This document shows positions 2,779-50,971 of a stretch of 64,000 nucleotides of DNA, piece after piece. The position numbers were made by a program, and so were the translations under genes. This DNA is from Dudresnaya verticillata. Lineage: Eukaryota. Every line of letters starts with the position of its first letter. The first letter of the stretch is position 1. Location: positions 2,666,001-2,730,000 of the forward strand of contig OZ374562.1 of NCBI GenBank assembly GCA_977862235.1, written 5' to 3'. The notes beneath the pieces are model-generated. The model ran no database searches and had not been told where the DNA came from. It saw only the letters and a list, made by a program, of their open reading frames with translations.

Positions 2779-5162
2779 TTGTGGATTCATCACCAGCGGC
2801 GCGAACTTATTCTCGTCTTTGACGTGATGCCGACCTTCAATGGTATGCAGGTGGCGGCGCCCTCGGCCGCGCTGGTGTACGCGTCACCTGTCGACTTCGT
2901 CGGTAAGAACCCTCGCGATCACGCGCATTTCTTCACGCAGGCCCCCTGGTTTGACCAGGAGGCTTTGCGTGAGGATGGTTTGGTTTCCCATTACGCTACT
3001 AGCGGTTTCTTGCCAGGGGGTCTGCCCCTTGGAGTCGTCTGGACGTTAGAGTGGAAGTTGCGCTGCGCGGTTCCGGTGGGGTGGCTTTGGGTGCGAGCGG
3101 GACAATCGCGCGCGGACGCCCACGCGCAGTTCGTCTCAGACGTATATCGACGCTTTACGCGTTATCGCGGGTCGACGTTAACGCCACCCCTTTTCAATTT
3201 CGATGCAGGGCAATACTGTACAGCTGGCGAGGCCGAATACGGTGCTCGTCTCGGGACGTTGTCATTGAAGCACGTGAGCTTGTCCATTGAGCCTCGCATT
3301 TTTCAAGAGGCTTACCTCTTAGGTGTACGCTTAAAAGCGGATTTTCGTTACTTGCATCGTACGGGTACGTTCTTCTGGGAGCGTTGTATCCGCTGGGAAT
3401 GTTAAACGCGTCGCCGAAAGGGCGTGTTTGTGCCGTACCAGGATATGCAAGTCGATTGCATTGAGCGTAGCAAATTACCTTACTGTTTTGTGAAGGTGCC
3501 GCCTGTATGGCGTGAGTTCGAGATATGCGAAGGTTTCGCAGCAGAACTCCCCCCGTGTGTCACGTATCTTGGTTCCGAGCTGATGACCGACCCGTATTCC
3601 AGGTATTGGATCGTTTTCTACACCGAGTGGGTAGCCAACGTGGCTTATGCTTGGCTATGGGAGGTGTATGACACCTTCCGTATGTATCATCTACCACCGC
3701 GTGTGGTCGCCTACCTCGGTAGCCTCGAATTGGTCGAAATATTTGGTGGTGCCAGGAACTCCGAGGAGTTCTGGGACCTGCGCGCTATTGGGGATGAGAT
3801 GGATTGGAACGACCCTGTCGCCGTACCGTTAGCTAACAACCGCCGTAAGGCGAATCTTCCGCGTTACGCGATGAGTCGAACTCATTCCGCCTGTGGCGAT
3901 TGGATTTGGTGCAACCCTTGGACAAAGCGTCGTACGACGAAGAACATTGCCGAACGCCATCGTAATACCGATCGCTTCACGCCGGGTAATCACCCGCGCG
4001 GTTTACGGAAGACCTGCTACTTTGTCGGTGACTTTCCTCCTCACTTAAGCGCCTTAATGGCGGAGGAGGATGCTCTGCACGCCAACGGCGGACCAGGTAA
4101 CTCGTCTGGGACGGCTATTGTTACGCCTATGCCGATGGAGTCTTCCGCTGAAGCGGCTGTCCCGTCTGCAACGTTACCCACGGGCCCTTCTGCGGCGAGT
4201 GCGATGCCAACCGGCGTGGCCACTGTCGCCCCCTTGGACCTTGCGGCGCCCGTTGCGGACGACGAGGGTGACGTCATTATGGCAGTGCCAGTTTCTGAGC
4301 CACCCCCGTCCGCAATGGCAGCAGATGGAGCATCGAGCGTCATAGACGGTTCAGGGAAAGCTCCCAGCGTGCCGGTATGGACCGATGCTCCCAGCGTGCC
4401 GGTATGGACCGAATAACAGCGCCGTACGGTCCTCGCGTTGTTGCAGGCTGCCGGCGTCGCTACTAGCGATTTGAGCGACTCACCCACGGAGTGCCAAAAT
4501 CGACTATTGTCGTAGGCTCCGCATCGAATGGCGGTGTGGCAGCAAAGCCTTCATCGCCTAAGGCGAATGGTCCGGCGTCTAAAGACGTGAGTATGACTGT
4601 ACCGCCTGCGGCGAGCGAAGCAAATGCTGCTATAGCGTCGTTGACGGCTCAGGAGGGGCCAGGTGCTCCTGCGTCAGTGACGAGTGTCGGGTTAACAACT
4701 CCGAAGGCGAGTGAAGAGGCGACGTCAATCGAGGCGGTTTCTGAACTTACGCCAAAGGCGGTCGATGAGTCGTTGACTGCGCTTAAAGCGGATTGGGCTG
4801 TGCCTGCGCCTAAGGCGAACGATAGCTTGAGCTCTGCGCATATGGCGGATGTTGTTTCTTCATCGCCTATGGCGGATATTGTCGTGGCAGCGCCGGAGGC
4901 GAGTGACCGACTTGGTTCTACGCCATCGGCTGTTGTCAAAGCCAAAGAGGCTTCGCCGTCTAAGGCAGGCGGTGAGTCACATGCTTCGACAGCGGCGCGT
5001 GATACTCCTTCAGCGACAGTGGTGGCGGTGCCTTTGCGGCCCGTCCCAGCTGCTGCTGTGAGTGTGCCGTCGGTGACGAAAGATGGCCTCTATGAAGAGG
5101 CATTGAGGGAGTCCGCCGAGGGCGATGATGCGGTGGGCTCAGCGAAGCCGCCTGCGACGTGA
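2779..5162 (+). pseudogene. Antisense extra ORF of Gypsy-A: conserved unknown domain plus Ala/Pro/Ser-rich tail
   Basis: ORFs 2779-3405 and 3424-4416 are in the same frame, separated by one TAA. 4491-5162 is a low-complexity tail in another frame. Homologous to the ORFs in Gypsy-B and Gypsy-D. Confidence 0.75.
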
Positions 5163-6426
5163 CGTAGTCGGCGTCGTTTCGGGCGAAAGGCGGTGGTGAG
5201 CATGCGTGTTGTGGTACCTTGTCGGCTCCCTTGCGGAGTCGGCAGGTAGGAGATCATACGTCGTTGACGAATAACGTGGAATGTCCTGCGGCGTTAGCCG
5301 CCGTGGCTTGGAGTTTGGGTGCGGGGTTTCCCCGTTGCTTAGCCCAATAAATTGCATCGTTGGTAACGTAGTTTGTTTTTGTCTTGCTGCGGCCGTCGTG
5401 TCGTTGCCGACGAGTCTTGCGGGCGCGTTAGCGAAATCCTTGTCTCGTCGTGGCGACGTGATCTGGGCGTTGTACTTCCCCTCGTTGCTCGCTGCGTTAG
5501 CGTTGTGTAGTGCGCCTGAGGCGTTGTTCTCGTCGTCATTGGCGATTAGTGTAGCTGTAATGGTCGTTTGTTAGCGAGGTCGAGGGGTTGTCCCCGTCTG
5601 TTTTTAGCCCCGTAAACTTCGGCCATTGTCAGCGTCTTCCCGTGTCGCGTTTCGCGTCGCTCTTAAGGTGTGACCTGTGGTCCCACTTCGACTTTGCGTC
5701 GTGTTCGTGATTGCCCGCTACAGTAGCGTTGGCGTTTGATGCCATTAGCCTTTGCCGTGCGTTACGCTTCGGATGCGTTTGGCTAGTAGTGTCCGCTGTA
5801 GTAGCGTTTTTCTTCGTGTTGCACGTACGGCGGTTGGCGTATTTCCGCTGACTTATCGTTTTGGTAATGCGTGTGTCGCGCTGCGCCTTGGGCGTGGTTT
5901 GTCGGCGTCCTGAACGAGGGTCGCGAAGGCGGTGAGGTAGGTGTTGACGCCTTGGCGTTGCCGCCCCTTTCGTCTTCGACGTTCCTCCTTGGGGGTAGGG
6001 TAGGGAATGGTCGCGCTCGCGCGACTGAGACCGCGGCGGCCGCGGTCAGGGGCGGAGTCGTTGGCGACATGTTGGCGCGTCGTGCACGGAACCCACGGCA
6101 ACTGCGTCTTCAACCACCTTCCCCCCCCTTCGGGGGTGGGTTTGTCGGTGCGCCCCTTCTTTGGCGAGTTACGTCGGAGACGTTCAACGGGTGCTTTCGC
6201 GCGAGACCGTGGCCGGCAGGGTGGCGGTCTCAGGGACTTGGCCGTGGTGCGAGTGCACGTCTCGACGTCGGAGACGGTTGTTGCGCGCTGTCACTTGTGC
6301 CTGTCGTCGCTGGTGCTCGTAGCACCTGCTCAGTCACTTGGCATGATTGCGTTCGTCGTGCGTTGACGGCGGGGTGGTGCGCGTTGCCGTGATAGGAAAT
6401 TAAAAATTGACCAATTACTGCCTCCA

Positions 6427-9400
6427 TTAGGCGTCACCCTCTGAGCTCGGTGGTGGCGTGTCGGGGGTAGTCGTCCCTTCTTCTTGTGACGTGGGGTTGA
6501 CTGCGTCCTGCGCCGCAGGCGGGCCTGGTGGTACGACGATTGGAGTGGCGGCCTGATCCGGTGGGGTCGGCGCCCAGACCACGCAGTCTCGGGACAAACG
6601 TTCCCGCTCGTCACGTCCCTTGTCGACGGTTACTGTCTCGTTATCAACGTGCGTTACCCGATATGGTCCGTCCGCCACTGGTGCCAACTTATGCTTACGC
6701 TCTGCGCGATCCGTGCTCCCGCCTCGGGCGAAGTATTCCTTGCGTACGAATACGAAGTCGCCTACGGCGATTGCTTCCTTCGATTTCCTTAATCGGGTAT
6801 CGAAGTTTCGTTTGAAACGTGCTTGAGTTTTCTCTACCGACGCTTTAGCGGTTCCCATCAGTGCGGCCAGCCAGGTTCGCCACTTGGTGTAGTATTGCCC
6901 CGCGGTGGGTACGCTTTCGAGCGACGGTTCCGCTTCGAGCGACAATGGCCGTGGTGGCTTTGACAGCACCAATTCAATCGGAGCGAGATGCGTAGACGAA
7001 TGCAACTGTGTGTTGTATGCGAACGGCAAGGCATCCGTGCACAGGTCCCAGTCTCTCGGATGATCCGCAACGTAGTGACGCAGCGAGGCCAGGATAGTTC
7101 GATTGAATCGTTCTACCTGCCCATTGCATTGCGGATGGTACGTCGTGGTGAAGCGATTCTCCACTCCCAAAAGACGGCAGATATCCTGAAACAGCTTAGC
7201 CACAAACTGTGGTCCGTTGTCAGACAACAGTTTCTTGGGGGGCCCGTACACGAAGACCCAATGTCGTACAAACGCCTTAGCGATTTCCAATGCCGTAATA
7301 CTACGCAGTGGGACCGTCCGGACCAGTTTCGAGAAGCGGTCCACAATGACGAGTAGGAACTTGTTTCCTCGCTTCGCGCGTATGAGTTCGCCCAGGATGT
7401 CGATCGATACAAATTCGAGAGGCTCGGTTGCCGGGAATAACTTCAATTGCTTGGTGTTCTTTCGCAGCAATACGCGATTCTTAGCGCAAGTTACGCAGTT
7501 GCGGACGGTCGCATAATGTGGCCACACATAGCAGTCCACTGGCATCGATGGCCAATAGGATTCGCGTCGAAGCGTATGATGCAACTTACGCCCCCTGGGT
7601 GCCCTGCCAACTTGGCGTGGTGCCGGAGGTGGAGTAAGAGAGCGCGTAACGCGGAAGGTACGACCACCTGCGGCCAGACTTCCACTGTTCGGACCAACAG
7701 GCCCTGTTCATCCGTTTCGAACGGTAAGATGATCCCGTCATCCAGACGCTTCCTGATGTCGTTCAGTATTTTTCATCGCCTTGGGCGTGTGCCAACTCTT
7801 CATACGTCACTTGACGAAGTAGTACCTCACCCGCCGGCGGCGTGTTGTTGATCAACACTTGGTGGACCTCTTCGAACTCTCGTTCGGAGAAGTTGACCTC
7901 GCCTTCGGCGTCTGACAGATCGTCTTGTGACGTTTGATGGCCGTCTTCGACGTAGCTTCCGTGATAGCATGGTATATCATCGTCAATGGGCTCAACTGTT
8001 TCTCCCTTCGTCTGTAGACGCGAAAGGGCATCTGCCTGAGTATTCAGGTACCCCTTTTTGTACTTCACGATGAAGTCGAACTCGGAAAGGCGAAGGCGCC
8101 TCCGCATTAACCGTCCAGAGGGGTCGCTGATTTCCAGCAGCCACCTCAATGACGAATGGTCCGTATGGACTGTGAACGACTCCATCTGGAGGTAAGGTCG
8201 CAGCGTCATGACGGACCATACTACTGCGAGGCACCCCTTTTCGGAGACCGAGTAGTTACGCTCTGGAGCGGTGAGCGAGCGGGACCAGAAGCCGAGTGGC
8301 TTACGCTCCCCGTCGGGCTGCGTTTGAAAGAGAGCGCAGCCGACCTGATACTCGCTTGCGTCACAATCGACGGAATAGGGGAGACCCTGCTGTCGTAGCG
8401 CCAATATAGACGGATGAGTCACGGCCTCGACGAGCGTACTGAACGCTTTGGCTTGTGTCTCATCAAACGGTTGTAACCGGAAGTCCTGTTCCTTCCTCAG
8501 CAACGTCTTGAGGGGGGCAGCGACATGTGCGTATCGCGAGACGAACCGTCTGTAGACGTTACAAAGACCGAGGAAACTCCGTAGCTCCTTCTGATCCCGT
8601 GGATGCTTGGCTTCGCGTAGCGCGGCAGTGACAGTTCGGTCAACTTCTAACCGTCCTGGACGTATGACGTGACCCAAGTAGTTGACGGTCGGGGTGAAGA
8701 AGTCACACTTGGTCAACTTCAGAGTCACCCCGGCGCGGTGCAATGTCGAAAGGATCTCGTCAACATGACGGAAGTGACTGTCGATGTCGCTGGAGAAGAT
8801 TATTACGTCGTCGAGGTAGACGAGGCACGAACGCCATTTTTAACCAGCGAGCAGTATGTCCAACGTTCGTTGAAACGTAGCGGGTGCGTTCGTGAGACCG
8901 AATGGCATACGCTTATAGCGGAACAGTCCGGCGTGGCACGTGAACGCAGTCTTATCGCGGTCTCCCGGATTGATCGGCACCTGCCAGTACCCACTGTTAC
9001 AGTCTAGGGTGGTGAAGACGTTTGCTTCTCCTATACTGTCAATGCATTCATCGATACGCAGCAGCGGGTACGTATCCCGTACGGTTACTGCGTTTAAACG
9101 TCGGTATTCTACGCAAAAGCGGAGGGTCCCGTCTTTCTTGGGGGCGAAGACCACTGGTGAGGCTCACGGCGATTGTGCGGGCTCGATAACCCCTTGATGC
9201 AGCATGCGGTCCACTTCCGCTTGAGCGAGTTGTCTTTGCTTCGGCCCCGCTCGGTAGGGCGGGGACGATATCGGTCTAGAGCCGGGAAGCAAGTCGATGT
9301 AGTGCTCCGTGGTTGAGATTTCTCCCAACGAACCGTCCCAAATAGACGAATACTTGCGTAACATCTCCTTAAGCCGGCCTTGATGCTCGGCGGGGAGATG

Positions 9401-10320
9401 TCCCAGGTCCAAATCGTCTACTTACGGAGGCTTGGCAGTGGTTGCCTCGATAGACTTCGTGAAAGTATCCGGCTGTGCCGCAGTGTTATCGTTCGTTTGA
9501 AAACGGAAATCTTGGTTTGCCTTCGCTTCCTCGGCCTGTTCCTCTGTGAGGCCCAAAACATCGGCTAGACTTACGTGACTGGGGAACACTGCTGTCGGAT
9601 GTAGTAACGCCGTCGCGACGACTTGGACCTTGGCCAGCGCCTGTGGGCGGGGAGAGAAGTTGGCAACCAGAATGCGAAACGCTTTTAGCGGCTCCACTTG
9701 AGCAATCCCGTTCGTAACGGCCAGACCTTGTTTGTCGTACAGCGTTCCGAACGGTTGAATTGTGAAGATGCCGGCGCGCTCGGTGGTCACCGATACCCAT
9801 TGCTGCGCCTTAGGCGGGATGATCGCGCGCTCGGTTACTCGGATCTTGGGCGACGTCCTTCCTTCGGCCTTGCCGTATTCCTGTTCCGTTGGTAACGGAG
9901 GATACGACGGGGGTCGGCGCAGCGGGCGGCGCGTTATAGGGACACGAGTCCAGTCATCCAATTCAACCTCCCGACTTCGCGGATATATTGCTTCGACGAA
10001 GCGGTCGCAAAAGTCGCAGCCGAGCATAACCGGCGCAGCGAGTCGTTCGCAAACGATCAGTTCCAACTTGACGACTCTCCGTCCCAGACGAACGACCAGG
10101 TCGATAGTGCCTCTTGTCTGAATCGCCTTATTGTTGGCGTCGGCTATGACGGGGAGGCTCTTTGCCACGATGCGCGATCGCGCTTCCAGCGGAATGTCGT
10201 CAATGCGAATGAAATTCGGACCAGCCCCCTTGTCGAGGACAGTGAGTTTACGTGCCAAGGTACTAACGGTTGCGCCCAAATCGGCGTACACCTTATAGTT
10301 CCTTTTGGCCATTAGGAACA
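6427..10320 (-). pseudogene. pol: Gypsy-A pol (protease, RT, RNase H, integrase) with stops and frameshifts
   Basis: VLDKGAGPNF (protease), LDCNSGYWQV, MPFGLTNAPATFQR, YLDD, CDASEYQVG, TDHSSL, AGHPG...CVTC, IVDRFSK, SDNGPQF, GQVERFNRT, GPYRV. Confidence 0.95.
7512..7531. other. TSD-flanked 10-bp palindrome: CATAA-TGTGGCCACA-CATAG
   Basis: Read directly, with one mismatch in the TSD. It inserts 5 codons in the integrase zinc-finger region (DCY[VWPHY]ATV). Confidence 0.85.
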
Positions 10321-10495
10321 ACTGCCCCCGCGCCCGGGGGGGCTGGTACCTTCGCCATGGGCTTTGTAATGACGTCTGTGACGACTCTATCCGCCCGCTG
10401 GCGTCATCGGTAACTAACTTCGGGCGCTCCTTCCGTGTCAACACCCGAGGCCTAGGCCTCTCTTCACGGTGCGACACTCCAGTGTCAGGATTTGG

Positions 10496-11009
10496 TGTTG
10501 TCCCGAAGCGCGTCTGACAGATCACCCATCGCATGCAGCCGCGCGCCTGACAGGTTGCCGTGCAACCCCCTGTGGGTGCTTACACACACACACGTGGACG
10601 CGTGTGCCTTACAGCTGTGCGCGCGTCTGTACTGTAGAGCGTGCGCCTTGGATCTAATCCGATACTTGTCCGATCCCGATCCCATCCGGATCCGGGCCAG
10701 CAATGCGAACACTCGCAATCTTACAGGCGCATGTCTTACAGCTCAGGCGATCCGGATAGCCAATCTGGATACCGGATCCGGATCCCATCGGGATCCGTAT
10801 TACAGTGCCCCGGGGCGCCATGTCGGTCCATCACCGTACAGTGCCCGCGTGGCGCGCGGCGCGCAGCGTGCGCGCGCGCCCCAGTGAGCCGTCAATGACG
10901 TGTTCGCGCGCCAACGGCGGTGGTGAGCGCCGGTGGCGGTTTCTCCGTCGGTCGACGTATTTGTTGCTCCGCTTTCAGCGAAAAAGGGGCTCACCCCCCT
11001 TGCACCACA
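10496..11009 (-). repeat. Truncated 5' LTR of Gypsy-A
   Basis: Matches 1875-2381 only and directly abuts the protease region. Confidence 0.9.
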
Positions 11010-11470
11010 CCAACCGCTTTTTCGCTTGCCATGGAGGAGACGGCCCGAAGGATGGACTGCCGGAAGAAGGAGGTACATAAAATTCTTGGGAAGCTTGCAT
11101 GGGTGGGACAGTGGCGGGAGATCGCATGTGCCGGGTGAAGCGGGCTGGGACTAGGGAGGGTCCTGTAGCGATTTGGAGCCGAAGTCGTCGCTTGCGCTTC
11201 ATCTGTTGCGCACGTATCGCAGTAGCCAAGTCAGAATGAGGGTGCTGAAGCAACTTTTGCTGGGATCTCTCCTTCTGGCAACGTTTGATCGCTCGAACTC
11301 GGGAATGTATGACACGCTGTAGCTTACGGCATTCCTGCTCAGCAAAGGCGCGTTGGGGTTCTGCGGCAGAGCTCTTCATTTCCCGGAACGCACGGCGCCT
11401 ATTTCTTCGCATGCAGTCGAGCTCAATGGACCAGTGTGGCTTAAAACGATGGGGTCTTGCGGGTGCAACG
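11010..11470 (-). pseudogene. LINE ORF2 segment upstream of RT (continuation of 1-1486)
   Basis: KPHWSIELDCMRRNRRRAF is a basic pre-RT motif. It joins across the CCAAC TSD. Confidence 0.8.
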
Positions 11471-12216: not shown

Positions 12217-12624
12217 TGTCGATTTGCACCCATCTGTGTCGCAGAGTCGCACTGTAAGATACCTTACAGTGCTTCCGGCGACCACCGCGCCGTCCGCGCG
12301 CGACGCGCGCGCCCGACTGCAACTGGCTAGGCTACTTCAAGCCCCGCTGACCACTACAGACCACCCCCGCTCCTCTGAGCACGATCGAAGTAGAAGAGTA
12401 AGCAGCGTTGACGAGAACGTCCGTTGCGTCAGCCGCGGTGGTCTGCCGTAGCCCTCTTCCCTTGCTTCGATAAACTTCGCCCACCTCTCTGACCCGCTCG
12501 CTCCGCTCGCGCCCCGCTCGCGCCCCTTTCCCCGTGTTCCGCGACCCTGCGCGCCGTGCCCGCAGAGCGGTGAATCTACACCACTCTCACGCCGCGCGCG
12601 CGTGTCGACCGGCTACGGACGCCA
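12217..12624 (+). repeat. Copia 5' LTR
   Basis: Direct repeat of 18934-19344. Confidence 0.9.
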
Positions 12625-12705
12625 ATCCGGATTCCTACCCGGTTCCACGCGCCGATTTCGTCGCTCAAGACTTTGTTACGATCGTAACCCATACCGTCTG
12701 AAAAA

Positions 12706-14781
12706 ATGGCTGCGAGCACGCGCAGTCATACCAAGGCTTCGGCCGCAGACAAGAAGACCCCAAGGAAGGAGTTCAAGACGAAGGCTGCCAACCTAATCCG
12801 CTGCCTCAGGAATTCCAACCTTACTGATGAGCTTTCGCAGAAGCTGATCAACGTTGCTATTTCTGTTCTCTCTTCCTACCCGCTTTCAGATGTCCCAGCG
12901 AGCAGTACAGGAGATTACGAAGACGTGGAAGCCAAGCCTCCTACCGAGAAGGCCGCAAGATTTGCGATGGAGCTTCTACCGCTCCCCAAGAAGATCTTCA
13001 CAGAAGACTTCTTCGAGGTGCCTACTTTCCCAGTCAACAGTCTGTTTGAGGTGGCCCGACTCTACGAGTTTGATGATGTCCCCCAACAGTATTGGGACAA
13101 AGCCAGCCTCTCAGACACTGAGCAGAAGAACAAAGGACTTGGCAGTCTCGTTTGGTTATGCTTCTTCACTGGATGCACGGCTGAGTTCTCCATCGATGCT
13201 GTACGCCAGTTCAAGGCTTGTCGTGGATCTCCGAACCCACTCATGCACCTTCCTTTCCAGAATAATGCTGTGAAAAGCTCAGTTGCTGAGGAGAGAGAAG
13301 ATACCATCTCCCGTCAAGACCAAGAAGCTCCGATGCTACAAGATATCCGAGTGGACAAGAACCAAGTTACCATTCACGGTGGTACCACCAACGCCGCTGA
13401 TCATCCCCGCCATCGCCCGGGAAACAACCAATTTGTTCGTGGCAACAACATGCAGCAGATTTACTCCTCCGCTGCAAACTCGTACCCCCATACGCAGGAT
13501 GAGGATATCGCGCACACGATGGCTCACGTCCCGGACGGGAGTTACTATCTGCGCGCCCCACCCGCCCAGAACAAAGAGGATCACGGTTATCCGAACATGG
13601 TACAGCGTCCGTATGGATCCAACGGAGGTCCAACGAAGTACGGCCCATCACCTGCCGAGCCCGGTAGTGGCGATCAGCCTCATGGTCCGCCGTTTCAAGG
13701 TTTTGGAAGAGGTCCTCATCGCCCGAACAGGGGACCCCCGCCGAACAACTTCGGAGATGGAGCAGGTCACAACGACCGAGGTCAAAACCCTCCCACCCGC
13801 TTCCCAGATCAACGTCGAGGCTACACTTCCAACGATGATCGTGACCAGCGCGATGAACCTCGCAAGGTTAACTACTTCCAGCAGATGTTCAAGGAATACA
13901 AGTTCTCCGGACACCTGGCTCAAGACATCCATCAAACCTTCAAGCTGTATGCAGTCTGCTCAAAGCAGTACAACCTCTCTCAGGCACACAAGGCAGAACT
14001 TCTTGTTCATGCATTCGATGGTGCTGCGCGTAAGTTCTACTTTGAACACACGCGAGAGGATATGTCGTATCAGGAGAAGACCCGAGTCATGATGAAGGAG
14101 TATGTTTCCGACGCTCGTCAGCTCCAAGTCAAAGGCACTCTTGAGACTCTTCGTCTCCGGACCTTCATGACCAAGAAAGACATTTCCGATGTCGCCCATG
14201 GCTTGACGAAGCTAGGTGAGACAATCAACGAGCTTGTACCTCAATGCCCCAAGGACGTTCGCTCTGATGCTCATAAGGTTGACTACCTCCGCCGAGCAGC
14301 GATTGAGTTCCAAGAATGGTCCCGCATTCCGATACAGAACATCACGTCCCAAGTTTACAGCTTCAACGCGTTCGTCACCACGCTTCACGAGTCCATCAAG
14401 AATCTTCGTCAGCTGGAGTGGCTCACAAGTGGAGATGCGCGCCAGTCTACCTTCACAGGACTCACCGAAGAAGACAACCTTCGGCACAGCAACAGTGTCC
14501 AGACTCATATGCTTCAGTACGGTCGGAACCCGCGCAAACTCTCGCGCTACAGTTCCAAAGGTGGTGATTCTGGTGCACAACTTCGGAGCCAGCAACGAAA
14601 TAATGCTGCACGCACATTCGCTGATGCTAGACGTCGCAATGAGTGCTTCCGCTGTGGTGCTGCCAATTGGAAGCCAGGGCATCGTTGCACGAAAGGAGCC
14701 ATGCAGTCCAACATCCGGGGCCGTATTGCTGGTGGTGAAGATGCCATGCACATCTTTGCTTCTCTTGTCGGAGACATGTAG
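12706..14781 (+). CDS. gag: Copia gag-like protein (691 aa to the first stop)
   Basis: Long ORF after the 5' LTR with a zinc knuckle CFRCGAANWKPGHRC. Confidence 0.8.
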   Translation: MAASTRSHTKASAADKKTPRKEFKTKAANLIRCLRNSNLTDELSQKLINVAISVLSSYPLSDVPASSTGDYEDVEAKPPTEKAARFAMELLPLPKKIFTEDFFEVPTFPVNSLFEVARLYEFDDVPQQYWDKASLSDTEQKNKGLGSLVWLCFFTGCTAEFSIDAVRQFKACRGSPNPLMHLPFQNNAVKSSVAEEREDTISRQDQEAPMLQDIRVDKNQVTIHGGTTNAADHPRHRPGNNQFVRGNNMQQIYSSAANSYPHTQDEDIAHTMAHVPDGSYYLRAPPAQNKEDHGYPNMVQRPYGSNGGPTKYGPSPAEPGSGDQPHGPPFQGFGRGPHRPNRGPPPNNFGDGAGHNDRGQNPPTRFPDQRRGYTSNDDRDQRDEPRKVNYFQQMFKEYKFSGHLAQDIHQTFKLYAVCSKQYNLSQAHKAELLVHAFDGAARKFYFEHTREDMSYQEKTRVMMKEYVSDARQLQVKGTLETLRLRTFMTKKDISDVAHGLTKLGETINELVPQCPKDVRSDAHKVDYLRRAAIEFQEWSRIPIQNITSQVYSFNAFVTTLHESIKNLRQLEWLTSGDARQSTFTGLTEEDNLRHSNSVQTHMLQYGRNPRKLSRYSSKGGDSGAQLRSQQRNNAARTFADARRRNECFRCGAANWKPGHRCTKGAMQSNIRGRIAGGEDAMHIFASLVGDM

Positions 14782-15104
14782 GAGGAACTCACAAGTCCTC
14801 ACGACCAGGAAGATGCAGACGTCCACTATGGTTAACCCGGAGAGTCTGAACTAGATCGCTTCGACGCAGCTGGAGCCAAAACCGGAATCCAGACCAACTT
14901 CGTAGACCCTATCGAGAACTTGGAAGGAGAGATTGTAACCGACCACATCTCGGCTGGTATGCCGCAGGATGTTTGGATAGGCGACAAGAGCATGTAATGC
15001 CTCAGCCTTGTCGTCAAGCGAACAAGCGATGACAGAAGCATCATCACAAAGCAGTCCCGAGGCACTCCCACCCATCCCAAAGCACCAAGCCACCAGACAT
15101 CTTC

Positions 15105-34459: not shown

Positions 34460-34463
34460 CGGA

Positions 34464-38450: not shown

Positions 38451-38451
38451 A

Positions 38452-39947: not shown

Positions 39948-42900
39948 TTATTCGGGCTGCGGATTGCGGATCACGAAGTCGGGGCAACGGATCCACACGG
40001 GCTCCCAGTCGGAGAGCCATTCGTGGGCGATTAGCACGGGATCAAGCGGGTCTGCTTGGCTTCGAAGCCTTGCGAAGTAGCGCGAAACGAGTTCTTCGGG
40101 CACGTGCGTACGGGGTTCCCACGTAGGCGTCGCGTAGCCGTCCCACTTGATACGAAACACGAATTTCCCGTCTTTGTCTGTCGAGTGATCGACGATATGA
40201 TCGACAACGTACTCGGGGCCTTCGTTGACCTTTTCCGCAATGTCTTCGGGTCGCGTAATCGACGGCCGCGAATTCGTAGGTGGTGGCGCGTAGATACAGC
40301 GGTCCGCGGAGACGCGTTCAACGAGGCCCTTGCGATCGATCACGAGTGTACGCGTATAGTTGAAGACCACTTTGTACGGCCCCTCCTCGGGGGATTTCAA
40401 CTTCGGAAGTTCCTTTTTGCCATCGTGGGTATCGAGCAACACGTAATCTACGGGTTTGACGCAGCTCTTCGTGCGTCGGATGCGTTTGTCGAAGTCGCGC
40501 TTGTATCGGTTTTGCACGCGTTGTAACGAAGTTCTTGCGGAGGTGATTGCGACATCGAGTCACCTAACGAAATCATTTCGAATGTCCTCCGTGGGTTTCG
40601 GTCGGTGCTTACGGGAGCGATGCTTGACGATGAATTCGGGCGGCGGTCGCGATAAAACGAGGTTGAACGGATTTGTCTTCGTAGACCGATGAACGTGGCA
40701 ATTGTACGAATACGTTAACGCGGAGATATAGCGGTCCGAATCGTTTTGGTGGTCGTTCACGTAGTTACGAAGCATGGCGAGGATAGTCCGGTTTTATCGT
40801 TCGGTTTGTCCTGTAGTATAGACGTCGGGTCGATCCGACGTCTAATACTTGCTGATCCGGAGCCGCCACACAGACCCCTCGATGGGTAGCTGTTGGGGTT
40901 GGTAGAGCGGTATCGGCCGCGTGCGCCCCGCAGGTGTGGATCGACGGAGTCGATGCCGGAGTGCGCACGGGGCGTATCGTACGCAGGTAGGCAGGGGCCG
41001 GATCCCAGCGTCCCTGTCGAAGGGCGGCACGAAGCCGACGGAAAGGAAAAGGAAAGGGGAAAAGCCTAGCGAGGCAAGGGGAAAAAGGGAAACCGCCCGC
41101 TGGCGAAAGGCAAAGGGATCGAACCCGAAAAGGCTGGGGGCAAGCTTCAGCGCGAGTTGTTGCTTGCCTGGTTTACTGAGCCGTCAATGGCCGACGGTCT
41201 TAAATACCCTACACTATGTGCACTACGACTACTTCTACAGTAGGTGCGCCCCACAACACCAACGCGGGAGGTGTGCGAGCGCGCGCCCATACACGTGTAG
41301 ACACGTCCGGGTAACGGCTACGCGTGGGCGCGCGAAGGGCGTAACGGGCAGCGGCCGTCTCAAAGGCTCGATGCCGGAGAGCGTCACAGGGGCGCGCCGT
41401 GTGCGGCACGGCGCGCGGCAGCTGCCGGCAGAAATGTGGTCGACCGCTACTAAATCAACGAAAAAACTAAGGGCACGCTGCCCAACCACGACTCGCCAGC
41501 GGGCGTCGTCGTGTGCACCATTACAGTGCGGGGCTGCCAGCATGCCTTACAGCCGCTGCTGATAGTGTGCTGACAGCTGTACTACATGTCCATTCGTTTG
41601 CGGATGATATGCGGAGGTGAACACGTTGATAACCCGAGTAGGCGGCAGACGCCATGAAAGAACTTCGAAGTAAATTGTTTTACGTTATCCGAGAGCACCG
41701 AGGCTGGCGGTCCGTATTTGAAGATCCAAACTTCGCAAAACGCGACTGCGACGTGATACGCGGTTATGACTCGTAGTGCAGCCACCTGGACCAACTTCGT
41801 AAATCGATCCGTAATCACGAGGATGAACTTGCGTCCGGATTTCGTTCATTGCAACGGGCCTAAGATGGCAATCGCAACCGATTCAAGTGGGCGCGTAGCG
41901 GGGAAGGGATTCAAGCGATGAAGGTTCCTTCGTAAGCGAATCCGATTTCTCGCGCAGTGCTTGCAACTTCGAACCGTAGATGCGATATTAGCAGCCATGT
42001 AAGGCCAGTAATACGTTTCAAGAAGTGAGCAGAACATGCGATTCTGCCCCGGGTGGCCAGCGAGTAACGAATGATGCGCTAGCGTAAGTTACCGGGGTCG
42101 GAACGTTTCGGGCAATACGATTTGCGTTAACTTCGGAATTGTCGGATGCGTTCGTCGCAGGAGACCGTCTCCATCTTCGTGAAAGAGACAATCCTTCGTT
42201 TTCGATTGTCTTGCTTGCAACGTTTGGGAGAACGAATCAATACGCTGTCCCTAGAGGATCGCGGATACGGTAATCGGCGCGGATAGGTCTGCGGGTTTGA
42301 CATCGGTTAGGTCACGCGGTTCTTCGTTAGGATCGATTCGATAAAGGTCAAACGGATCATCGTCATGGATATCGTCCCATAAATCGCAGTCATCGTAGAC
42401 ATCGTTTTGTCCTGCGTATTCATCACGTAGTGCTTCGTCGTGTACGCGGGCGCAACCTTTGTGGCGGTGAGGATGGTGAGCTCCGTAATCTTTCGGGACC
42501 TCCGTGGGTCTTTGCGTAGTACCTGCTCGAATTACCCCTTTTGCGGGCGTAGTCGTCCGCGTGGAGTCGTGGCGAATCGCGGTAACTTTCGATTGACGTT
42601 TGCGAGATTGCGTAGTGATGAGAACCGCTTCGCTTGCGTTTTCGATAGCTTTTGCGACGTCGTTTCTGAAGCGTGCTTCGTTCTTTGGAGTTTTGATCCG
42701 AATCCAACGTAGGCACTTCGTCGTCGACTGCGGGTTGTTCGCGATGTGGAAGTAGCAACCGCGAAAGGGCATCGGGAATATGGTGGACGCGACAGGGCAT
42801 CGGGAATATGGTGGACGCGACCGGGGCGATACATGATTTCGAAGTCGAATTCAGCTAACCGCAGCCTCCATCGCGTGAGTCGCCCGGACGAATCGGTGAG

Positions 42901-45900
42901 AGAAAGAAGCCAGCGGAGCGTCGTGGTCCGTACGCACGGTGAACCGGGTCCCTTCGATATACGGAGGTGAAGAAGTAACCGCCCATACGACTGCGTAGCA
43001 TAGGCGCTCGGTCGCGGAGTAGTTCTTCTCGGCATCGTTTAACGAATAAGACCAGTATCCCGCCGGTTGGAACTCTTCGTTATCTTGCTCATGTAGCAAC
43101 GCGCACCCGAGTTGATACGCAGACGCTTCCGTATCGATGATGTAGCGTTTCCCGAGTTGCGGTAGCCAGAGTATCGGCGGTGACACGAGCTTCCGTTTGA
43201 GCGTTTCGAATGCGGTAACCTGGTCCTCCGTGGGATTCTCGTAGTCTGGATTCGCGTCATTTCGTGTCATGTTCGTCAACGGTCGCGCAATTTTCGCGAA
43301 GTCTTTCACGAATCTTCAGTATACGTTACACGCGCCGAGGAACGAACGGACTTGCGTGACTGTCTTCGGGAACTTCGCGTATCGGGATGCCTCGGAGCTC
43401 ATCTCGGCCATACTCCGCTTCCCCGGGTAAATTACGTGTCCGAGATAGTCGACTCGCTTGCGGAAAAGGAAGCACTTCTTCATTTTGAGCGAAATCCTGG
43501 AGTTGCAAAGTAGCGAGAGGACTTGATCGAGATACGCGATGTTTTCACGAAGGTTCGCGGAGAAAACGACCACGTCATCGGCATAAACGACCCAGCAGTG
43601 CCCACGGACTCCGGATATAATGATATTGAGTGCACGTTGAAACGTAGCGGGCGCGTTTTTCAAATCGAAAGACATACGAAGATAACGATAAGTTCCGAGA
43701 AACGAAGTAAAAGTAGTCTTGTCGCGGTCTTCCGGGGCAACCGGAATCTGCCAGTACCCGCTGTTACAATCGAGTGTCGAGAAAATAGAAGCGTCTCCGA
43801 GTGAATCGATACAATCTTCCATCCGGGGAAGCGGGTACGCGTCAGATAGTGTCTTCGTATCGATTCTTCGGCAATATTTGCAAAAACGAAATGTTCCGTC
43901 TTTTTCGGTGCGAGGACTACGGGGGACGCCCTCTCCGAGGTGGCTGGTTCGATTACTCCGGCTGCGAGCATACTGTTGATTTCGTTACGGACGATTTCGC
44001 GTATTGAGAGCCCTTGACGGTAGGGCATCGAGCGAATAGGTCGAGTCCCGGGTTTTAGCTCGATCCGATGCTCCGTGGCTGCGATCGTTCCGATATCTCC
44101 ATTCCACATCGATTCGTGCTTACGTAGCATCTCGAGGACCTCGTTTTGCATAGTTTCGTCGGGTATGTTCGAAAGGTCTACGAGTTCTTCCCAATCGCGG
44201 GAACTAGAATTGGCTTCGGCCGCTGCAGTCGCGGCGCCCTTCATGAGCGGTTTTTCCTTCGTGGATAGGGATTATTCGGGTAACTTCGAGTCGTCGCGAT
44301 CACGTAGCGTAGAGATGTTTAGCACCTTGGCAAACGAATCCGCGACTGCACGATCGGGTGTCAAAATCGCGAGCGGGTTTCGAGCTGCGTATCCGATGAC
44401 GGTTCTCTTCGGTAGAGCTCGAGGCTTATCCGTGAAGTTCGCCATCAACACCGAAAACTCGCCATTCGGACTGACTTCGTGTATCCCGTTCGTTAACCGT
44501 ACTCCGTGTTGGTGTTGTAACGAAGGTTTCGGTTCGATATCAATGAGTCCGAGTGCTTCCGAGGTCACGGTGACTAGCTTCTGCGAATAACTCGGTATTG
44601 TGACGCGGCGGTTCAAACGAATGGTACGGGTGTCTCGGTCCCAATCGTGGAGCTCGCGTCGATGTCGCTTCGATAGCGTTTTCTCGAATTTCTGCTTCGG
44701 ATTTTTCGAATTAGTCGCGGGCGGAGCAGATCCAGCAATGCGGTTGATAATCGGAATCGTGCTTCCACTCTTCGTGATGAGCCTCCGTGGGCTGAGCTCG
44801 ATGCTTCGTAAAGGCGCGTCCATCCACGAAGTTCCAAGGAGAACGTCGACTGCGAGTTTCTCCGCAACCACGAAGGGTACGCGGTATCGAACGATCCCAA
44901 GGCGGACTGTCAGGTAAACGATACCATCCAGTCGCAACGGGGTGCGATTAGCGGATGCGAGCCTCGGAGCTGATTCCATCGTGGACGCCTTCGCTTCCGA
45001 ACCGGTGGGTAAGGCAGCCCGGGCTATTAGTTTGTAACCGGAACAAGTATCAATTGCAATCGTATGCGGCGTCATTACGTAGGCATCGAGGCCAATGGAT
45101 CCGCTCACGAGGAAGATCTCCGAAGTCATCAAGCAAACGTATCCCTCGGTGGTGACTTCGGGTTCGATCTTCGAGATCGGTATCTTCTTCAAATTGTTTT
45201 CGCACGAAGCAGCTTTCGCGAGGACTCGACATCTCTTTCGGTATCGTCGTCGCGCAGCGCGCTTCCTTCGCATCGCAGCGGCTCTCGGAATCGGAATATG
45301 CGGATTGTCTCGGGGAACGGGTTCAAACGAAGTACGTGACACAACGGGTGTCCTCGGCTTTACTCGTTTTCCGAACTCGAACTAGAATCCGAATTACGAG
45401 CGTCCGCGTCGAAAAGGGGTGGTTGATCGATCATCTCTTCCGTTATTCGCGGAGTCTTTGTAAGCCTCCGAGGGCAGGTTCGGGTGACTCAGCTCAATCA
45501 CGTCAACGTTTTTACGGACTGCGAGAACCGGTTGACGGCCCGGGGCCTGCGCGTGTCTCGGATTGCGGAGGACGGTCGGCGGCCCTCGACGCTCAAAGCT
45601 GACTTGACGCTGGGCTCGGTCCCTCGGATAGCGCGTATCGCCTTGACGAAGGTCTCGGTTTACGCGATTGGCACGCGAGCCTCGGGAGGCTTGTCCACGG
45701 TGACTTCGATTGTCAACGGACGCGAACGAATTCCCTCTTGCGGCACCGCGATTCACGAAGTTATTACGCGTATACGGTCTCGTCTCGAGTTGATAGAGAT
45801 AGTTAGTTCTGATACGCGCAGTAGAGTTGTTGCTCCTTCGTGAGATACGGACAAGAATACATCAGGTGACCGATTTCGCCGCAGAACCAACACGGCCACG

Positions 45901-47828
45901 CATCCGGGTTCTTCGGGATCATCGAACGTGCCATCTCGATTTCCTCCGGGGTCATCGGGGGGACACGCGCGGGTACGAAACGCTCGATGCGACTCGTGAG
46001 ATCTAATGTATCGTCCACGGAGACCGTTGTCGAAGTAGTCGATGTAGCGGATGTGGACCTGGTTCCTGAACGAATCATCATCACGGCCATTTGCGGATCT
46101 TCGTTCATCGGGTACTCGTATTCACTCCCGCGAGTGTCGCACACTTCGATAAGCATCGTGCATCCGGGCGCTTGGCGACTCTTCGGGTACGTAGCGGAAG
46201 CTTGGCTCTTCGAATCACGCGACTGTTGGGCCGCGGTGTCACGTTATTCGCGAGCTCGGAATTTCGTACCTTCGGCTTGCGCGATTCGTTGTACGCTCAT
46301 GAAGTTCTTTTGCTCGGACAACGGTAAAAGGAGAACCTGTTCGGCCACGATAGGATACGTAGTGGGTAGAAGTCCACGAATAAATTGGTGCGTTAACGAA
46401 GAATCAGCATAGAAACCGGAGCAGACATCCGCGTAGCCTTGTAGACGAGTCGCGAACTCCATCTCGGTTTCTTCGGACTTCTGCTTCGCGGTAATCACGC
46501 GATCGTGTGCGTCAGCGATTACGTATTCCGTGAGAAATAGTTGTAGCAATACGTTCACGATAGCAGACCAGCAAACCGGGTTGCCAGTACGAACGCCTAC
46601 GAAGGCATAGTGTTGATACACCTTGAGCACGGTCTCGTCGAGGAACCACGAAATCTTTCGAACTGCTGCTCCTTCGGTGAGCCCGACTCCGTTCAGCGCT
46701 TGTCTAATATCACGAATAAATACGAGAACCTTAATCGGATCGCGTCCCATAAACTTCTCGAATCTCGGCATCATCGAACGCATGCGCGAAACGGTTTTTG
46801 ACGTTTTACCTCGGAATACTTCGTGTTGTTTATCCTGAGGTGACTAATTCGTGATTCGATACGATCGATAGCTTACAGCCTGCGCCAATTCGGTGATGAG
46901 CGTCGGTATCGGTTGACGCCCGGCTCGAGCGGTCCCCAGTGCCAGAAAGATGACACGGGTCCCGCGAGCGATCACGGAGTTTTGATTACGGATCCTCCGG
47001 GGGACATCGGTGGTTGAAGTGAAGCTCGGAATACTGCGGGGTTGATACGGGGGGTTTCGGAGGCATCGGTTGCCTGATGCGATAAAGGGTGCAGGGACTG
47101 ATTCGGATACGTGTTTTTCGGTAACGTAGATTGGGCACCCGGGCCTTGCACGGGTTGAACTAGCGGTATTGCAATTGAATTGCGGGGGTCAGGACGGGCA
47201 TCGGGACGATCTTCGCGAATTCGAGTCTTTTCATTCGGTAATGCTGCGGACACGATGTCACGTATAGCGTTCAACTGTTCCTCCGTAGACGTGTGCGAGC
47301 TGCGAACGGGAAGCGGGTGACTCGCGTTGTCCACGGGGGCGGTTGCGTTGCGCTCGAGCACGAGGAAACGGTTGCTGACTCCCAAGACGAGATCCCGGAG
47401 ACTCTCGAGTGAGTCTTCGATCTACTGACCTTGCCAGCGCGGAAATTTTCGAGCTCTGCGTGAACGCGATTATGCGTATTACGAATTGAAAGCTGCGTGA
47501 TACGGTACGCAGTGGAAAGCGCGTCGATGACCTCTTCGTAGAGTAAACGTCGTTCTGCACCGGAGACTTCCTTCATCGAGAATAGTCGATCGACGGTATC
47601 CGAGGGAACGATTTCCAACGGAGTGTACGTATACGAAAGGTCGGACGGGCTACCGTGAGCCTGCGAACGCGAGTCTGTGCGAAGATCGGGTACCGTTATA
47701 CGTGAAGCGCGAGTGCGAGAAAACGGTTCAAAGTCACTCGCGTTCGAGTCGAACAACGGGAGCTCCGGAATCGGTACGTCACCGGGGTTCGGTACCAACG
47801 AATCGGGACGACTCGGAGCGTGACACAT
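39948..47828 (-). pseudogene. Gypsy-C gag-pol with chromodomain, heavily disrupted
   Basis: gag KFMGRDPIKV and CWFCGEIGHLMYSC; IDTCSG (protease); LDCNSGYWQI; YADD; ITDRFTK; EYVVDHIVDH...IKWDGYATPTWEP. Confidence 0.9.
40812..41586. mobile_element. Solo LTR (775 bp) inserted in the Gypsy-C integrase
   Basis: TGTAGTA...TACTACA termini with perfect TSD TGTCC (40807-40811, 41587-41591). Its start resembles the Gypsy-A LTR. Confidence 0.92.
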
Positions 47829-47898: not shown

Positions 47899-48303
47899 GT
47901 GTGGTATACCGAAGTCCACGGTGACGCGGGGAAGTCTCGCACTGTAAGGAATGGCCTCGGAGCCTAAGGAATGGCTTCGTAACCTAACGGAGAAAGGAAA
48001 AGGGGTGGTAGCGTGGTAGAGCGGAGCGACCAACACGAAGGACCACGGTTTCAACGTATTCGTGAGCGGAAGGTAGAACTCGAGCGATCGATCCCCGGGG
48101 ATGACTCCGGGTACGCAGGGCGATCGAAAGCGAGGCTCGACCGTATCCGCGGCCACGAAGACGAAGACACCGAACTCGAAGAAACAGGGGTTTACCGAAG
48201 ACTCCGAGGTCCGGGCGCTAGTCGCTTGCCGGAAACCCTCGGAGATTGTGCCAGACGACTGGCTAAGTAATACTAAGTGAGCACGAATACACGTCAAAGC
48301 GGG

Positions 48304-48836
48304 TGTGGAGCACTCACAATCCACCAAAACAGGTCCCGATGGAGGGACAAGCAAGGCCTGATCGTAAGGCCACCCGCGCAGTCCGGGCGCGGTGCGGGAG
48401 ACCACCCTGCAAAGGATAGGGTGCAGGGACCCAAAGGAAAAGGGAAAAGGCAGAGGAAAAGGGAAAAAGGTAGACAGTAGAGATAGGTTAGCGGTAGCTT
48501 AGGCGTGAGGCTACTCGGGTTCCGCGCGACTCCAAGCTTTGCACCGAAGTGTTAGGCCCGAGGGTGGATGCCCCTCCGTTTACCAGATGTGCAGCCCTAG
48601 GTGGCTAAGTACTACCGCCGCCGGCACGGAGGCGCTGGCAGGCACACCTACACTACTGTAGGGTGTAAGCGCTAGAGCTCGATCTAGATCTAAAGTGGAG
48701 AGCTGAATTGGCCTGCTCGTGCTTACTGTAGACTGTGCTGTCAGTCAGTCGGCAAGGACGCGCCTGTAAAGCGCGCCTGTAAGGCAAAGGATCCGGAATT
48801 GGGTCAGACGAATGGGGCGAGTGCTAGTGTACTACA
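48304..48836 (-). repeat. Gypsy-D 3' LTR (~95-bp deletion relative to the 5' LTR)
   Basis: Direct repeat of 60098-60735. Confidence 0.93.
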
Positions 48837-49236
48837 GATCCCCCTTCGTAGCGTTGAACGCCCACGCTCAAAAATCAAGTGAAAAGGTCTTCGCGAGGCA
48901 CCATTCGTCGTCGGTGCTGTACCTGAACGCGGTGCGCGACGGAGGCCATATCAAAGCCAAGGAGTAACTCCCATTGTCGGTGGAGCCCGACCAGAACACA
49001 GTCGTCATCACTGTTTCGTGTGAGGTTGCCATTTCTCGCTTTTGTCCTGCGCGTTTGCTGCTCTGCGCTGCATGTTGCTCTGCGCTTCGTGTTGCCCGTG
49101 TGCCCGGGCTTTCGTGTCGGAGTCTCCCGACGGTGCTGTGCACCTGTTTTGGTATACCCAACTTGCGTAGTCGCTCGTGTGAACGCGACAAGTCCGTGGA
49201 CTGACGTACTGAGATACTTCAGCTTCTTTTGGCGAG

Positions 49237-50971
49237 ATGGACCGTTTCCATATTCGCCTGGTGTTTCAAGCTGGATCTGTGACCGTCCCTGAGTCGAGCC
49301 GGTTCGCAACCGAGGCTCAATTGCGTGGGAAGTCAATGCGACATCACCCGCTGCTCTTAGAGAGAGCAGCATGGTTTCACAAGGAGTCCGTTCGCACCCC
49401 GGACATTCTCGAGGCTTACATGGGCACCTCTGGATCGTTGCACGGAGGGCTACACGTGCTCGCTGTCACTAGTCGTGACTGGGTGTTCCGTATTGACGTG
49501 AACCCCGAGGCGTTGGCGTTCCGCCATAGGCGTACCTCTGAGGAGAGGCGCCGAGCCTTTGTGCGGCTCTTGGTCGACCGCGTGGGGCGCACCCCGTGCA
49601 ACGAACTCATCCCGCAAGGGATGGACGTTGATACGTGGGCGTATTGCACGCTGGGCGACGTCGATTATCTCGATGTGTTGGTCTAGATCTTGGATGGCGA
49701 CATTGGGGACACAGTCCATAAGTCGCTTTGGGCGTGGTGCCGCCCCATTCTGCCAGCGAATTACCGCTCGTTCGTAGAGCGGGAGAGCGCGGCGAGCTAT
49801 TGGCATCAGCTCAAATGGGAGCGCCGTGAGCGCAATCGCTACGGCGTCTTCCTGGTATACCAGTGGGTGGAGGTTCACACCTTTAAGGCGAGTGAGCTCT
49901 CCACCCGCTATCCCAGCCTGGTTCGACCAGTGGGAGGCGCCATTAGACTTCACGGCTGAAGCGCCGCCGGTCCTGACCTACTTTGGTTTGAGGCTGGCGG
50001 CTGACCCGAGAGACAAGTTATGGGTCTTGTTCCTAGCCGAGTGGGGTGCTATTACTGCGAAGCGCTGGACATGGAGCGCAGTGGACGGGCGGTTGTACCT
50101 CATGCCCTATATGCTTCTAGAGAAATACGAGAAGCTGGACTTCACAGCAGTTCTTGGTGGTGCGGCGGTGCATTTTCCGCGGCTTATTGAAGCCCATGGC
50201 CTGGTTAACTGGCCTGATGTGCCCAGTCGGCAAGGCCGGCGTGGTACACGACAGGTAAATCGCTCACCGGGTGGGGGTTTCGATATGGGGACCCCCACCT
50301 GCGGAACCTGGGTTCGGTTCGACTTTGACCATTTCGAGGTCACACAGCCGGAGCTGCTGAAGGGGGCCGTTACACCTCAAGCTCAGGATGAGGCTGTGGC
50401 GCCTCCGAATGGTGAAGCTGGTAACGCTTCTGAAGCAGCTCTTGCATCGAAGGCTGCTTCTGGTGCCACGGTGAGTAGTGGCCCGGGTGATTGGGGTGAC
50501 AATCATGGCTACCCACCCCTGTCGGGGCATGTTCGCCGTCGCGGTAGCGCGACATCGGGGCAGCCCACGCGTCGTCGTGGTCGCTACGGCCTGGGCCATG
50601 CGCGTTCGTATGCGGCGGCTGCCACGCAGGCGGTCGCTGGACCTGCGAAAGGTGCGGGCTGCGTTGGGGGCCGAGGTGTCGCGGCGTCAGCGACTGTGGC
50701 TGCTCCTGCCTCGGCAGTGGCAGCTGGCGAGGATCCTGTCGCGATGGATGTGGACGTGCCTACACGTCAGAGTTCTGGGGCGTCAACATCCCCAGCGACC
50801 GTAGGAGCAGTTCTGGCTCCGAAAGGCGTTGGGGCGGCTGCGGGTGCCGCTCCAGCAGCTGCAGCGGCTGCTGAGCCCAAGGTGGGGTCTGGCGTTTCAA
50901 TCGCGACGACGCCTACCAGTGAGCCGGTAGGCGGTGAAGGGGAGATCGATTCCCAAGAGTACATTGAGTAG
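49237..50971 (+). pseudogene. Gypsy-D antisense extra ORF
   Basis: ORFs 49237-49686 and 49690-49959 are in frame across a TAG, then frameshift into 49826-50971. Homologous to the Gypsy-A and Gypsy-B ORFs. Confidence 0.75.

Follow-up and report, generated by a model that had tools for sequence, protein, structure and literature searches.

Decayed copies of a deeply diverged antisense gene family, likely Gypsy-owned, in a 64-kb stretch of the Dudresnaya verticillata genome

The DNA analysed here is a 64,000-nucleotide stretch of Dudresnaya verticillata contig OZ374562.1 (assembly GCA_977862235.1, positions 2,666,001 to 2,730,000 of the forward strand); the whole stretch is referred to as the window, and positions are counted from its first letter. 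The window is ~55% in G+C and its content is nested eukaryotic transposable elements. Three plus-strand open reading frames (ORFs), here called ORFx-A, ORFx-B and ORFx-D, are found at the elements Gypsy-A, Gypsy-B and Gypsy-D, respectively. A sequence-only reading of the window had taken them for one antisense ORF family, each member pointing inward from the 3' long terminal repeat (LTR) and opposite to pol. For Gypsy-A and Gypsy-D this layout stood up: the gene lies within an LTR pair and is convergent with pol, with its Met codon located 445 nt (A) and 400 nt (D) inward of the 3' LTR; ORFx-B is just convergent with an integrase remnant. The purine tracts GGAGGGGGG (2383-2397) and GAAGGGGGA, both on the minus strand, directly precede the left LTRs of Gypsy-A and Gypsy-D (48303-48837), respectively. 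Since pol is also on the minus strand, the two elements run from right to left and their left LTRs are the 3' LTRs. The integrase begins at 6427 in Gypsy-A and the chromodomain at 52830 in Gypsy-D, beyond ORFx at 2827-4416 (-5162) and 49237-50971, respectively.

ORFx-A occupies a single plus-strand frame, which runs from stop to stop over 2776-3405 and 3406-4416, is interrupted by one in-frame stop codon at 3403-3405, and has its first Met at 2827. The 231-residue frame that follows at 4467-5162 contains 12.7% Ala, 10.9% Ser, 9.8% Gly and 9.5% Pro and resembles the tails of the family; judged by its sequence, it is likely the rest of the ORFx-A tail beyond a frameshift. One perfect 27-nt tandem duplication, with two copies in frame, is located at 4360-4412, directly before the ORFx-A stop codon. 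ORFx-D starts in one plus-strand frame (stop-to-stop 49213-49686 and 49687-49959, stop codon 49684-49686, Met 49237), shifts near 49900 into the frame of 49778-50971, and ends at 50971. A 14-kb DNA transposon divides ORFx-B, whose pieces at 20131-20465 and 34460-36114 share one frame; the transposon together with one target duplication measures 13,998 nt, a multiple of 3. As had been proposed, the core is rich in Trp (17/408 residues, 4.2%), and the tails are disordered and rich in Ala, Ser, Gly and Pro.

The peptide blocks that had been quoted as shared are all present in the translations of A, B and D, and the similarity is significant against shuffled sequences. ORFx-A and ORFx-D match each other with a tblastn E-value of 3e-23 and a Smith-Waterman z of ~25, and none of 500 shuffles reached the observed score. 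For B2, the C-terminal piece of ORFx-B, z is 4.9 against A and 7.1 against D, again with 0/500 shuffles in each case; the short B1 pieces are unconvincing in pairwise comparison (z 1.0-3.7). In tblastx of A against D, the signal lies in the plus frames (60+44+29 bits), and the minus frames gave just E 0.004.

One family profile hidden Markov model (HMM) was built from 65 database proteins, with the window rows excluded, and was used to scan every ORF of the window in six frames. All three copies were matched, in line with the earlier reading, with E-values from 2.8e-71 to 1.8e-14 and 0.0014 for the weakest piece. In ORFx-A the matches are 2776-3402 (E 7.3e-46, profile 6-192) and 3406-4413 (E 2.8e-71, profile 195-439); in ORFx-D they cover profile positions 14-141 (E 3.4e-32), 156-225 (E 2.2e-19) and 223-513 (E 1.4e-39); in ORFx-B they are B1a (E 0.0014, profile 64-118), B1b (E 1.8e-14, profile 144-218) and B2 (E 8.7e-33, profile 218-422). 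No match was found elsewhere in the window. The B pieces are colinear on the profile, and thus the transposon cuts the ORFx-B gene at one point. At the level of sequence similarity, the membership of ORFx-A, ORFx-B and ORFx-D in one protein family is confirmed.

Outside the window the family is large. With the A/D/B alignment as query, an exhaustive HMMER search, counted in cluster representatives, gave 738 representatives at E<=1e-3, 303 at E<=1e-10 and 77 at E<=1e-30, the best being 2.9e-76. Among the best 150 representatives, 45 cover the profile from position 40 or before to position 400 or beyond; their median length is 630 residues and 43 of them start with Met. Intact ORFs of 400-900 residues occur among the relatives. 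Those with names are four Gracilariopsis chorda paralogues and one Gracilaria domingensis protein, all labelled 'hypothetical protein', and one Agarophyton chilense protein labelled 'unnamed protein product'; these hosts are agar-producing red seaweeds of the family Gracilariaceae. The other relatives derive from ENA, Logan and JGI assemblies. Several of the 90% clusters contain members of equal length (637, 648, 701 and 708 residues), which fits young intact copies, and many such members are on contigs scarcely longer than the ORF, as would fit transcripts.

Using a 10-row alignment, two metagenome loci, L001 and L002, were retrieved. L001 is a frameshifted ORFx copy. L002 contains the C-terminus of ORFx on the plus strand (1-627) and a chromodomain (Chromo, E 1.4e-06), integrase and RNase H on the minus strand (805-4062); its pol genes are convergent with ORFx and lie ~180 nt past the ORFx stop, so the layout is that of the window in an unrelated element. 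Other searches gave little: the word-indexed protein search with copy A as query scored 0 of 3216 candidates, the same search with the 70-row alignment returned 3 matches only, and the ESM Atlas gave no usable match for A 3406-4050 or for relative P0007.

At codon positions 1, 2 and 3, the identity between ORFx-A and ORFx-D is 0.44, 0.56 and 0.28 in the N-terminal half and 0.47, 0.55 and 0.34 in the C-terminal half. The amino-acid blocks are kept while the third positions are randomised, which argues for conservation at the protein level. Over 120 codons, L001 and L002 differ by 0.41-0.43 nonsynonymous (dN) and 1.4-1.6 synonymous (dS) substitutions per site, which puts dN/dS roughly at 0.25-0.31; for comparisons among A, B and D no ratio is computable, owing to saturated dS. 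Taken together, the codon-position patterns and a dN/dS of ~0.3 point to selection on the ORFx protein. The amino-acid identity of ORFx between A and D is 27-31%, compared to 51-58% for pol; ORFx evolves faster than pol, yet it is retained. In trees of 96 core sequences (rows >90% identical or covering <60% of the core were dropped), the window copies fall into three separate clades with SH-aLRT (Shimodaira-Hasegawa-like approximate likelihood ratio test) values of 94.5, 100 and 99.5, and are separated by 3.3-3.9 substitutions per site. The three clades, the codon pattern and the dN/dS of L001 and L002 bear out the earlier idea of an old, selected protein, and support the view that ORFx is an old, large and deeply diverged protein-coding family.

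AlphaFold2 modelled the relative P0002 from the 70-row alignment with a mean predicted local distance difference test (pLDDT) score of 92.9 and a predicted TM-score (pTM) of 0.90. The prediction, of high confidence, is a globular core of ~390 residues (range 370-400), mostly helical with few short strands, close to the ~400-residue domain plus disordered Ala/Pro-rich tail that had been described from the DNA. In the model of the full-length relative P0018, the core has a pLDDT of at least 95, the linker (413-459) is below 50, and one C-terminal helix-loop-helix (461-505) is at 85-94. This region corresponds to a C-terminal motif of ~35 residues, '[VI]RxFLRxxGV ... ELRGYVRGRL', in which F, L and G are nearly or fully invariant; it is present in 35 of the 170 fetched proteins, often at the extreme end. 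Across the family, the near-invariant positions are PW, W, D, R, E, Y, ER..R..G, E, Y, W, E and GD. The cores are near neutral (median isoelectric point, pI, 6.4), whereas the tails are acidic (median pI 4.9).

As the sequence-only reading had reported, we recognised no known domain. Pfam gave no match for the 7 window pieces (E<=1), the 70 alignment members (E<=0.01) or the 17 full-length relatives (E<=10); PF04195 (TRP28, Transposase_28) was unreported in all of these scans, and NCBIfam gave nothing relevant. Searching the PDB sequences with the family profile, the best match was 44 positions of a xyloglucanase (E 0.068). Foldseek gave no match at E<=0.001 in the PDB (best E 1.6, TM <=0.13; models above ~400 residues can hide single-domain matches) or in BFVD (best E 4.1). 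MAP kinases, which fill the PDB list at root-mean-square deviations of ~20 A, were rejected as noise. Herpesvirus UL32/ORF68 occurs in both fold lists (E 5.7-9, TM ~0.1). ORF68 binds zinc through Cys, and this candidate was rejected because the family alignment is without the conserved Cys expected of an ORF68-like protein. A resemblance of the C-terminal motif to the SAP or HeH helix-extended-helix motif was considered; no SAP (PF02037) match was found by Pfam among the 17 full-length relatives at E<=10. Two hits of the motif profile to PDB sequences, one designed ankyrin repeat (per-stretch E 420) and one response regulator (E 0.011), were rejected. Going by the model, the ORFx core is without detectable relative among solved structures.

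The features of the window are listed in Table 1. Gypsy-A and Gypsy-D share 51-58% amino-acid identity in pol, and no similarity was found between their LTR plus spacer sequences (best E 0.11); the claim that the LTRs differ is correct for A against D and lacks an object for B, for which no LTR pair was found in the window. Gypsy-D and the L002 element show the order and ending of chromoviruses, i.e. reverse transcriptase (RT), RNase H and integrase with a C-terminal chromodomain (Chromo E 3.6e-10 at 52830-53252 in Gypsy-D; behind rve in L002); scanning Gypsy-A and B, which are decayed or truncated elements, detected no Chromo domain. The interior of Gypsy-A is ~3 kb shorter than that of Gypsy-D (9530-10494 versus 56903-60096), and its homology to D begins 180 nt from the 5' LTR, well within the long pol ORF of D; owing to this late start, Gypsy-A seems to be without most of gag. 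The 5' LTR of Gypsy-D contains ~100 nt (60295-60393) that are absent from the 3' LTR, i.e. an indel between the LTR copies.

Table 1. Features of the window (positions counted from its first letter)
Feature	Position	Strand	Remarks
ORFx-A core and start of tail	2827-4416	+	core ~2845-4050; ORF stop at 4414
Ala/Ser/Pro-rich open frame, 231 aa	4467-5162	+	different frame; without profile match
ORFx-B N-terminal part, two frames	19797-20081 and 20131-20465	+	profile matches
ORFx-B C-terminal core (to ~35313) and tail	34460-36114	+	in frame with 20131-20465
ORFx-D N-terminal part	49237-49899	+	in-frame stop 49684-49686
ORFx-D C-terminal core and Ala/Gly/Pro-rich tail	49910-50971	+	entered via frameshift
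Gypsy-A 3' LTR	1874-2382	-	94.4% identity over 518 aligned nt with 10495-11010
Gypsy-A pol remnants (RT end, RNase H, integrase)	6427-10579	-	Pfam RVT_1, RT_RNaseH 7.6e-31, rve 9.1e-14
Gypsy-A 5' LTR	10495-11010	-	pairs with 1874-2382
Integrase C-terminal remnant facing ORFx-B (convergent)	37661-38621	-	sub-threshold SH3_Tf2-1, E 0.00085
Gypsy-D 3' LTR	48303-48837	-	93-97% identity with 60097-60736
Gypsy-D pol (RT, RNase H, integrase)	52830-58849	-	Pfam RVT_1 7.6e-33, RT_RNaseH 1.5e-33, rve 1.9e-09
Gypsy-D 5' LTR	60097-60736	-	pairs with 48303-48837
Copia-like LTR element	12217-19345		RVT_2, weak rve; LTRs 12217-12625 / 18934-19345
DNA transposon interrupting ORFx-B	20466-34459		13,994 bp; outside the ORFx family

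The integrase remnant that faces ORFx-B is weakly similar to the integrase of Gypsy-D in tblastx (28-36% over ~40 residues). The pol remnant of B is ended by one inverted duplication (38961-39831 / 42615-43513, 98-99% identity), which spans an RNase H-coding stretch and looks as if the chromodomain Gypsy element at ~39951-47000 were present a second time, truncated and inverted; a rearrangement or an error of assembly could account for it. The Copia-like element is located just upstream of ORFx-B, probably in or beside the missing 3' LTR of B, and has a near-perfect 5-bp target duplication (CAATC / AAATC). The DNA transposon that splits ORFx-B has terminal inverted repeats of ~1.1 kb (20466-21591 / 33298-34459), which are 94-98% complementary and hold 3-4 copies each of a 117-nt tandem repeat, and it is flanked on both sides by the 4-bp target duplication CGGA. 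It carries one DUF7869 ORF (PF25273, E 2e-39) at 22528-23646 on the minus strand, together with sub-threshold matches to the DNA methylase N6_N4_Mtase (E 0.0016, 30933-32090, plus strand), FKBP_C (E 0.001) and AAA (E 0.0096).

We consider it likely that the three plus-strand ORFs descend, in decayed form, from one gene that is owned by the Gypsy elements, is situated antisense between pol and the 3' LTR and probably serves as their third, accessory gene. Several observations weigh against this explanation. All three window copies are broken by stops, frameshifts or the transposon, and none is functional today. Neither a chromodomain nor gag was detected in Gypsy-A, the window contains no LTR pair for B, and the genomic context is established for four loci only (three in the window and L002). 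The host range is poorly sampled, as names were obtained for just 2 of the 30 clusters looked up, plus one further relative. The dN/dS is only rough, owing to the saturated dS. No domain, fold or motif was matched that would indicate a specific activity, the core has a near-neutral pI, and the C-terminal motif was not detected in the window copies.

One alternative is that ORFx belongs to a host cellular gene family which was captured by, or adjoins, Gypsy elements, and that the window copies are transduced or neighbouring sequences. LTR elements are known to transduce genes (PMC7264820), the relatives with names carry the plain annotation 'hypothetical protein' and come from contigs of 70-695 kb, and the context of few family members is established. 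However, the gene has the same position and orientation in three diverged window elements and in L002; A, B and D diverged anciently and are not recent copies of a single host gene; and transduced genes are described as occurring in one or few copies only (PMC7264820). We therefore regard this alternative as unlikely. An ancient capture of a host gene at the origin of the family would be compatible with a Gypsy-owned gene.

Because of the layout, any ORFx transcript would be complementary over its whole length to the 3' portion of the genomic RNA, and antisense transcripts with regulatory roles in retroelements are a topic of PMC7264820; the selected product could then be an antisense RNA that pairs with the genomic RNA and feeds or dampens silencing, the frame being incidental. 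The conservation at the protein level, with third codon positions at random identity, speaks against this, as do the 738 family members, the intact ORFs and the model with a pLDDT of 93, and we hold an RNA-only product to be quite improbable; the transcript may have an RNA role alongside the protein. Slightly less credible again is that ORFx is the remnant of a virus or of a different mobile element that had inserted into each Gypsy copy. The window is indeed full of insertions (the Copia element, the 14-kb DNA transposon and the inverted duplicate), and a nested-insertion origin of antisense ORFs has been considered in the literature (PMC7264820). However, no repeats or target duplications flanking ORFx were found in A or D, ORFx contains no transposase, RT or capsid domain, the arrangement recurs in independent, diverged elements, and neither BFVD nor the IMG/VR viral contigs (114 pattern matches) contained any relative of ORFx. 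An envelope-like or movement protein is highly improbable here, although a third ORF behind pol is often taken to be env-like (PMC5408684): ORFx is antisense to pol, no env family was matched in Pfam, the maximal Kyte-Doolittle 19-mer of the window copies is 1.20-1.27 with none at 1.6 or above, in agreement with the earlier reading, and the hydrophobic 19-mers of at least 1.6 in 21 of the 153 family proteins are at non-conserved sites.

For the Gypsy-owned gene, we propose that ORFx would have a promoter of its own, located within the 3' LTR or a short way inward of it, and that its transcription would run opposite to the genomic RNA. The proposal follows the analogy with maize Grande gene23 and HTLV-1 (human T-cell leukaemia virus 1) HBZ: gene23 is reported to have its own promoter, and the antisense promoter of HTLV lies within the 3' LTR (PMC7264820). 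Comparison of the regions upstream of ORFx-A and ORFx-D revealed no common motif, TATA or promoter-like element. The protein would act in trans on the cycle of its own element. Because the tail is acidic and disordered and is followed by a terminal helical hairpin, we favour a regulator or adaptor that would work through protein contacts of the tail and the hairpin. Judged from the alignment, an enzymatic site is also conceivable at the invariant residues D, R, E, Y, E-R..R, E, Y, W, E and G-D. Inevitably, the mRNA would form the complement of the 3' portion of the genomic RNA, and an additional effect at the RNA level may result. The anti-silencing or targeting role suggested by the sequence-only reading is pure conjecture.

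A bolder version of the same explanation is that ORFx, as a third gene, is the defining mark of an ancient red-algal chromovirus clade, has a fold new among solved structures, is expressed as an antisense transcript from the 3' LTR in the manner of HBZ, and is needed for the control of transcription, silencing or integration. We put this forward tentatively and think it rather doubtful as a whole; if true, no earlier antisense gene of a retrotransposon would have had a globular domain modelled with confidence, and ORFx could be approached by structural and biochemical work. Should the fold prove truly new, it would be a target for structure determination. The deep divergence and size of the family make its conservation informative, many natural copies are intact, and the core model, with its pLDDT of 93, lets the invariant residues be placed on a structure and probed. 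Since the family is not in Pfam and its named members are labelled 'hypothetical' or 'unnamed', red-seaweed annotations probably count many ORFx genes of transposable elements as host genes; a family model would clean up such annotations.

In architecture, ORFx belongs to a known class. Its layout is that of the aORF-3R class of antisense additional ORFs, which is defined by layout and not by homology: in A and D it follows the end of pol and precedes the 3' LTR (no LTR was found for B), is on the plus strand with pol on the minus strand in A, B, D and L002, and is multi-copy, occurring in three diverged window elements, L001, L002 and 738 representatives, with context for 4 loci. The plant Ty3/Gypsy examples given in PMC7264820 are maize Grande gene23, rice RIRE2, Silene Retand and Phaseolus PvRetro13, which likewise stand within the element, behind pol and ahead of the 3' LTR, have the opposite coding strand, and are conserved across copies and related families; the long region from pol to the 3' LTR is also common to both (PMC11963269). 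The parallel with plant Tat/Retand elements that had been drawn from the sequence thus holds for the layout, and it fails for the protein. According to PMC11963269, the antisense ORFs of Retand encode TRP28 (PF04195) in 97% of clusters, TRP28 is known in flowering plants alone, and Retand is a non-chromovirus lineage; different from this, ORFx is without any Pfam match, its named hosts are red algae, and at least the elements D and L002 bear a chromodomain.

Outside land plants, brtn is reportedly an antisense extra gene of Boty-like Gypsy elements in Botrytis cinerea and much shorter than ORFx. HTLV-1 HBZ and HTLV-2 APH-2 are likewise encoded on the minus strand and may serve, by analogy, as a model for ORFx expression. 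HBZ is a small bZIP protein and has no relation to ORFx in sequence or fold; the ORFx core is predicted to be globular, ~390 residues in size and of unmatched fold. HBZ and APH-2 are nuclear, and HBZ is critical in the virus life cycle (PMC11963269). The ORF3s of bdelloid rotifer LTR elements, which encode GDSL esterase, DEDDy exonuclease or env-like proteins, are comparable in that extra, family-specific, non-envelope genes stand behind pol (PMC5408684); they differ from ORFx in being on the sense strand and in having recognisable enzyme domains, whereas ORFx is antisense and without recognisable domain. Among the papers listed by full-text literature searches, no description of the ORFx gene from red algae was recognised. 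Antisense extra genes have been known since Grande and RIRE2, none with an established function according to PMC7264820 and PMC11963269. Compared to these, the antisense architecture between pol and the 3' LTR is known, and the protein is, judged by the Pfam scans, unrelated, apparently unclassified and from a new host lineage; the ORFx family extends the class, independently and without homology, to another eukaryotic kingdom.

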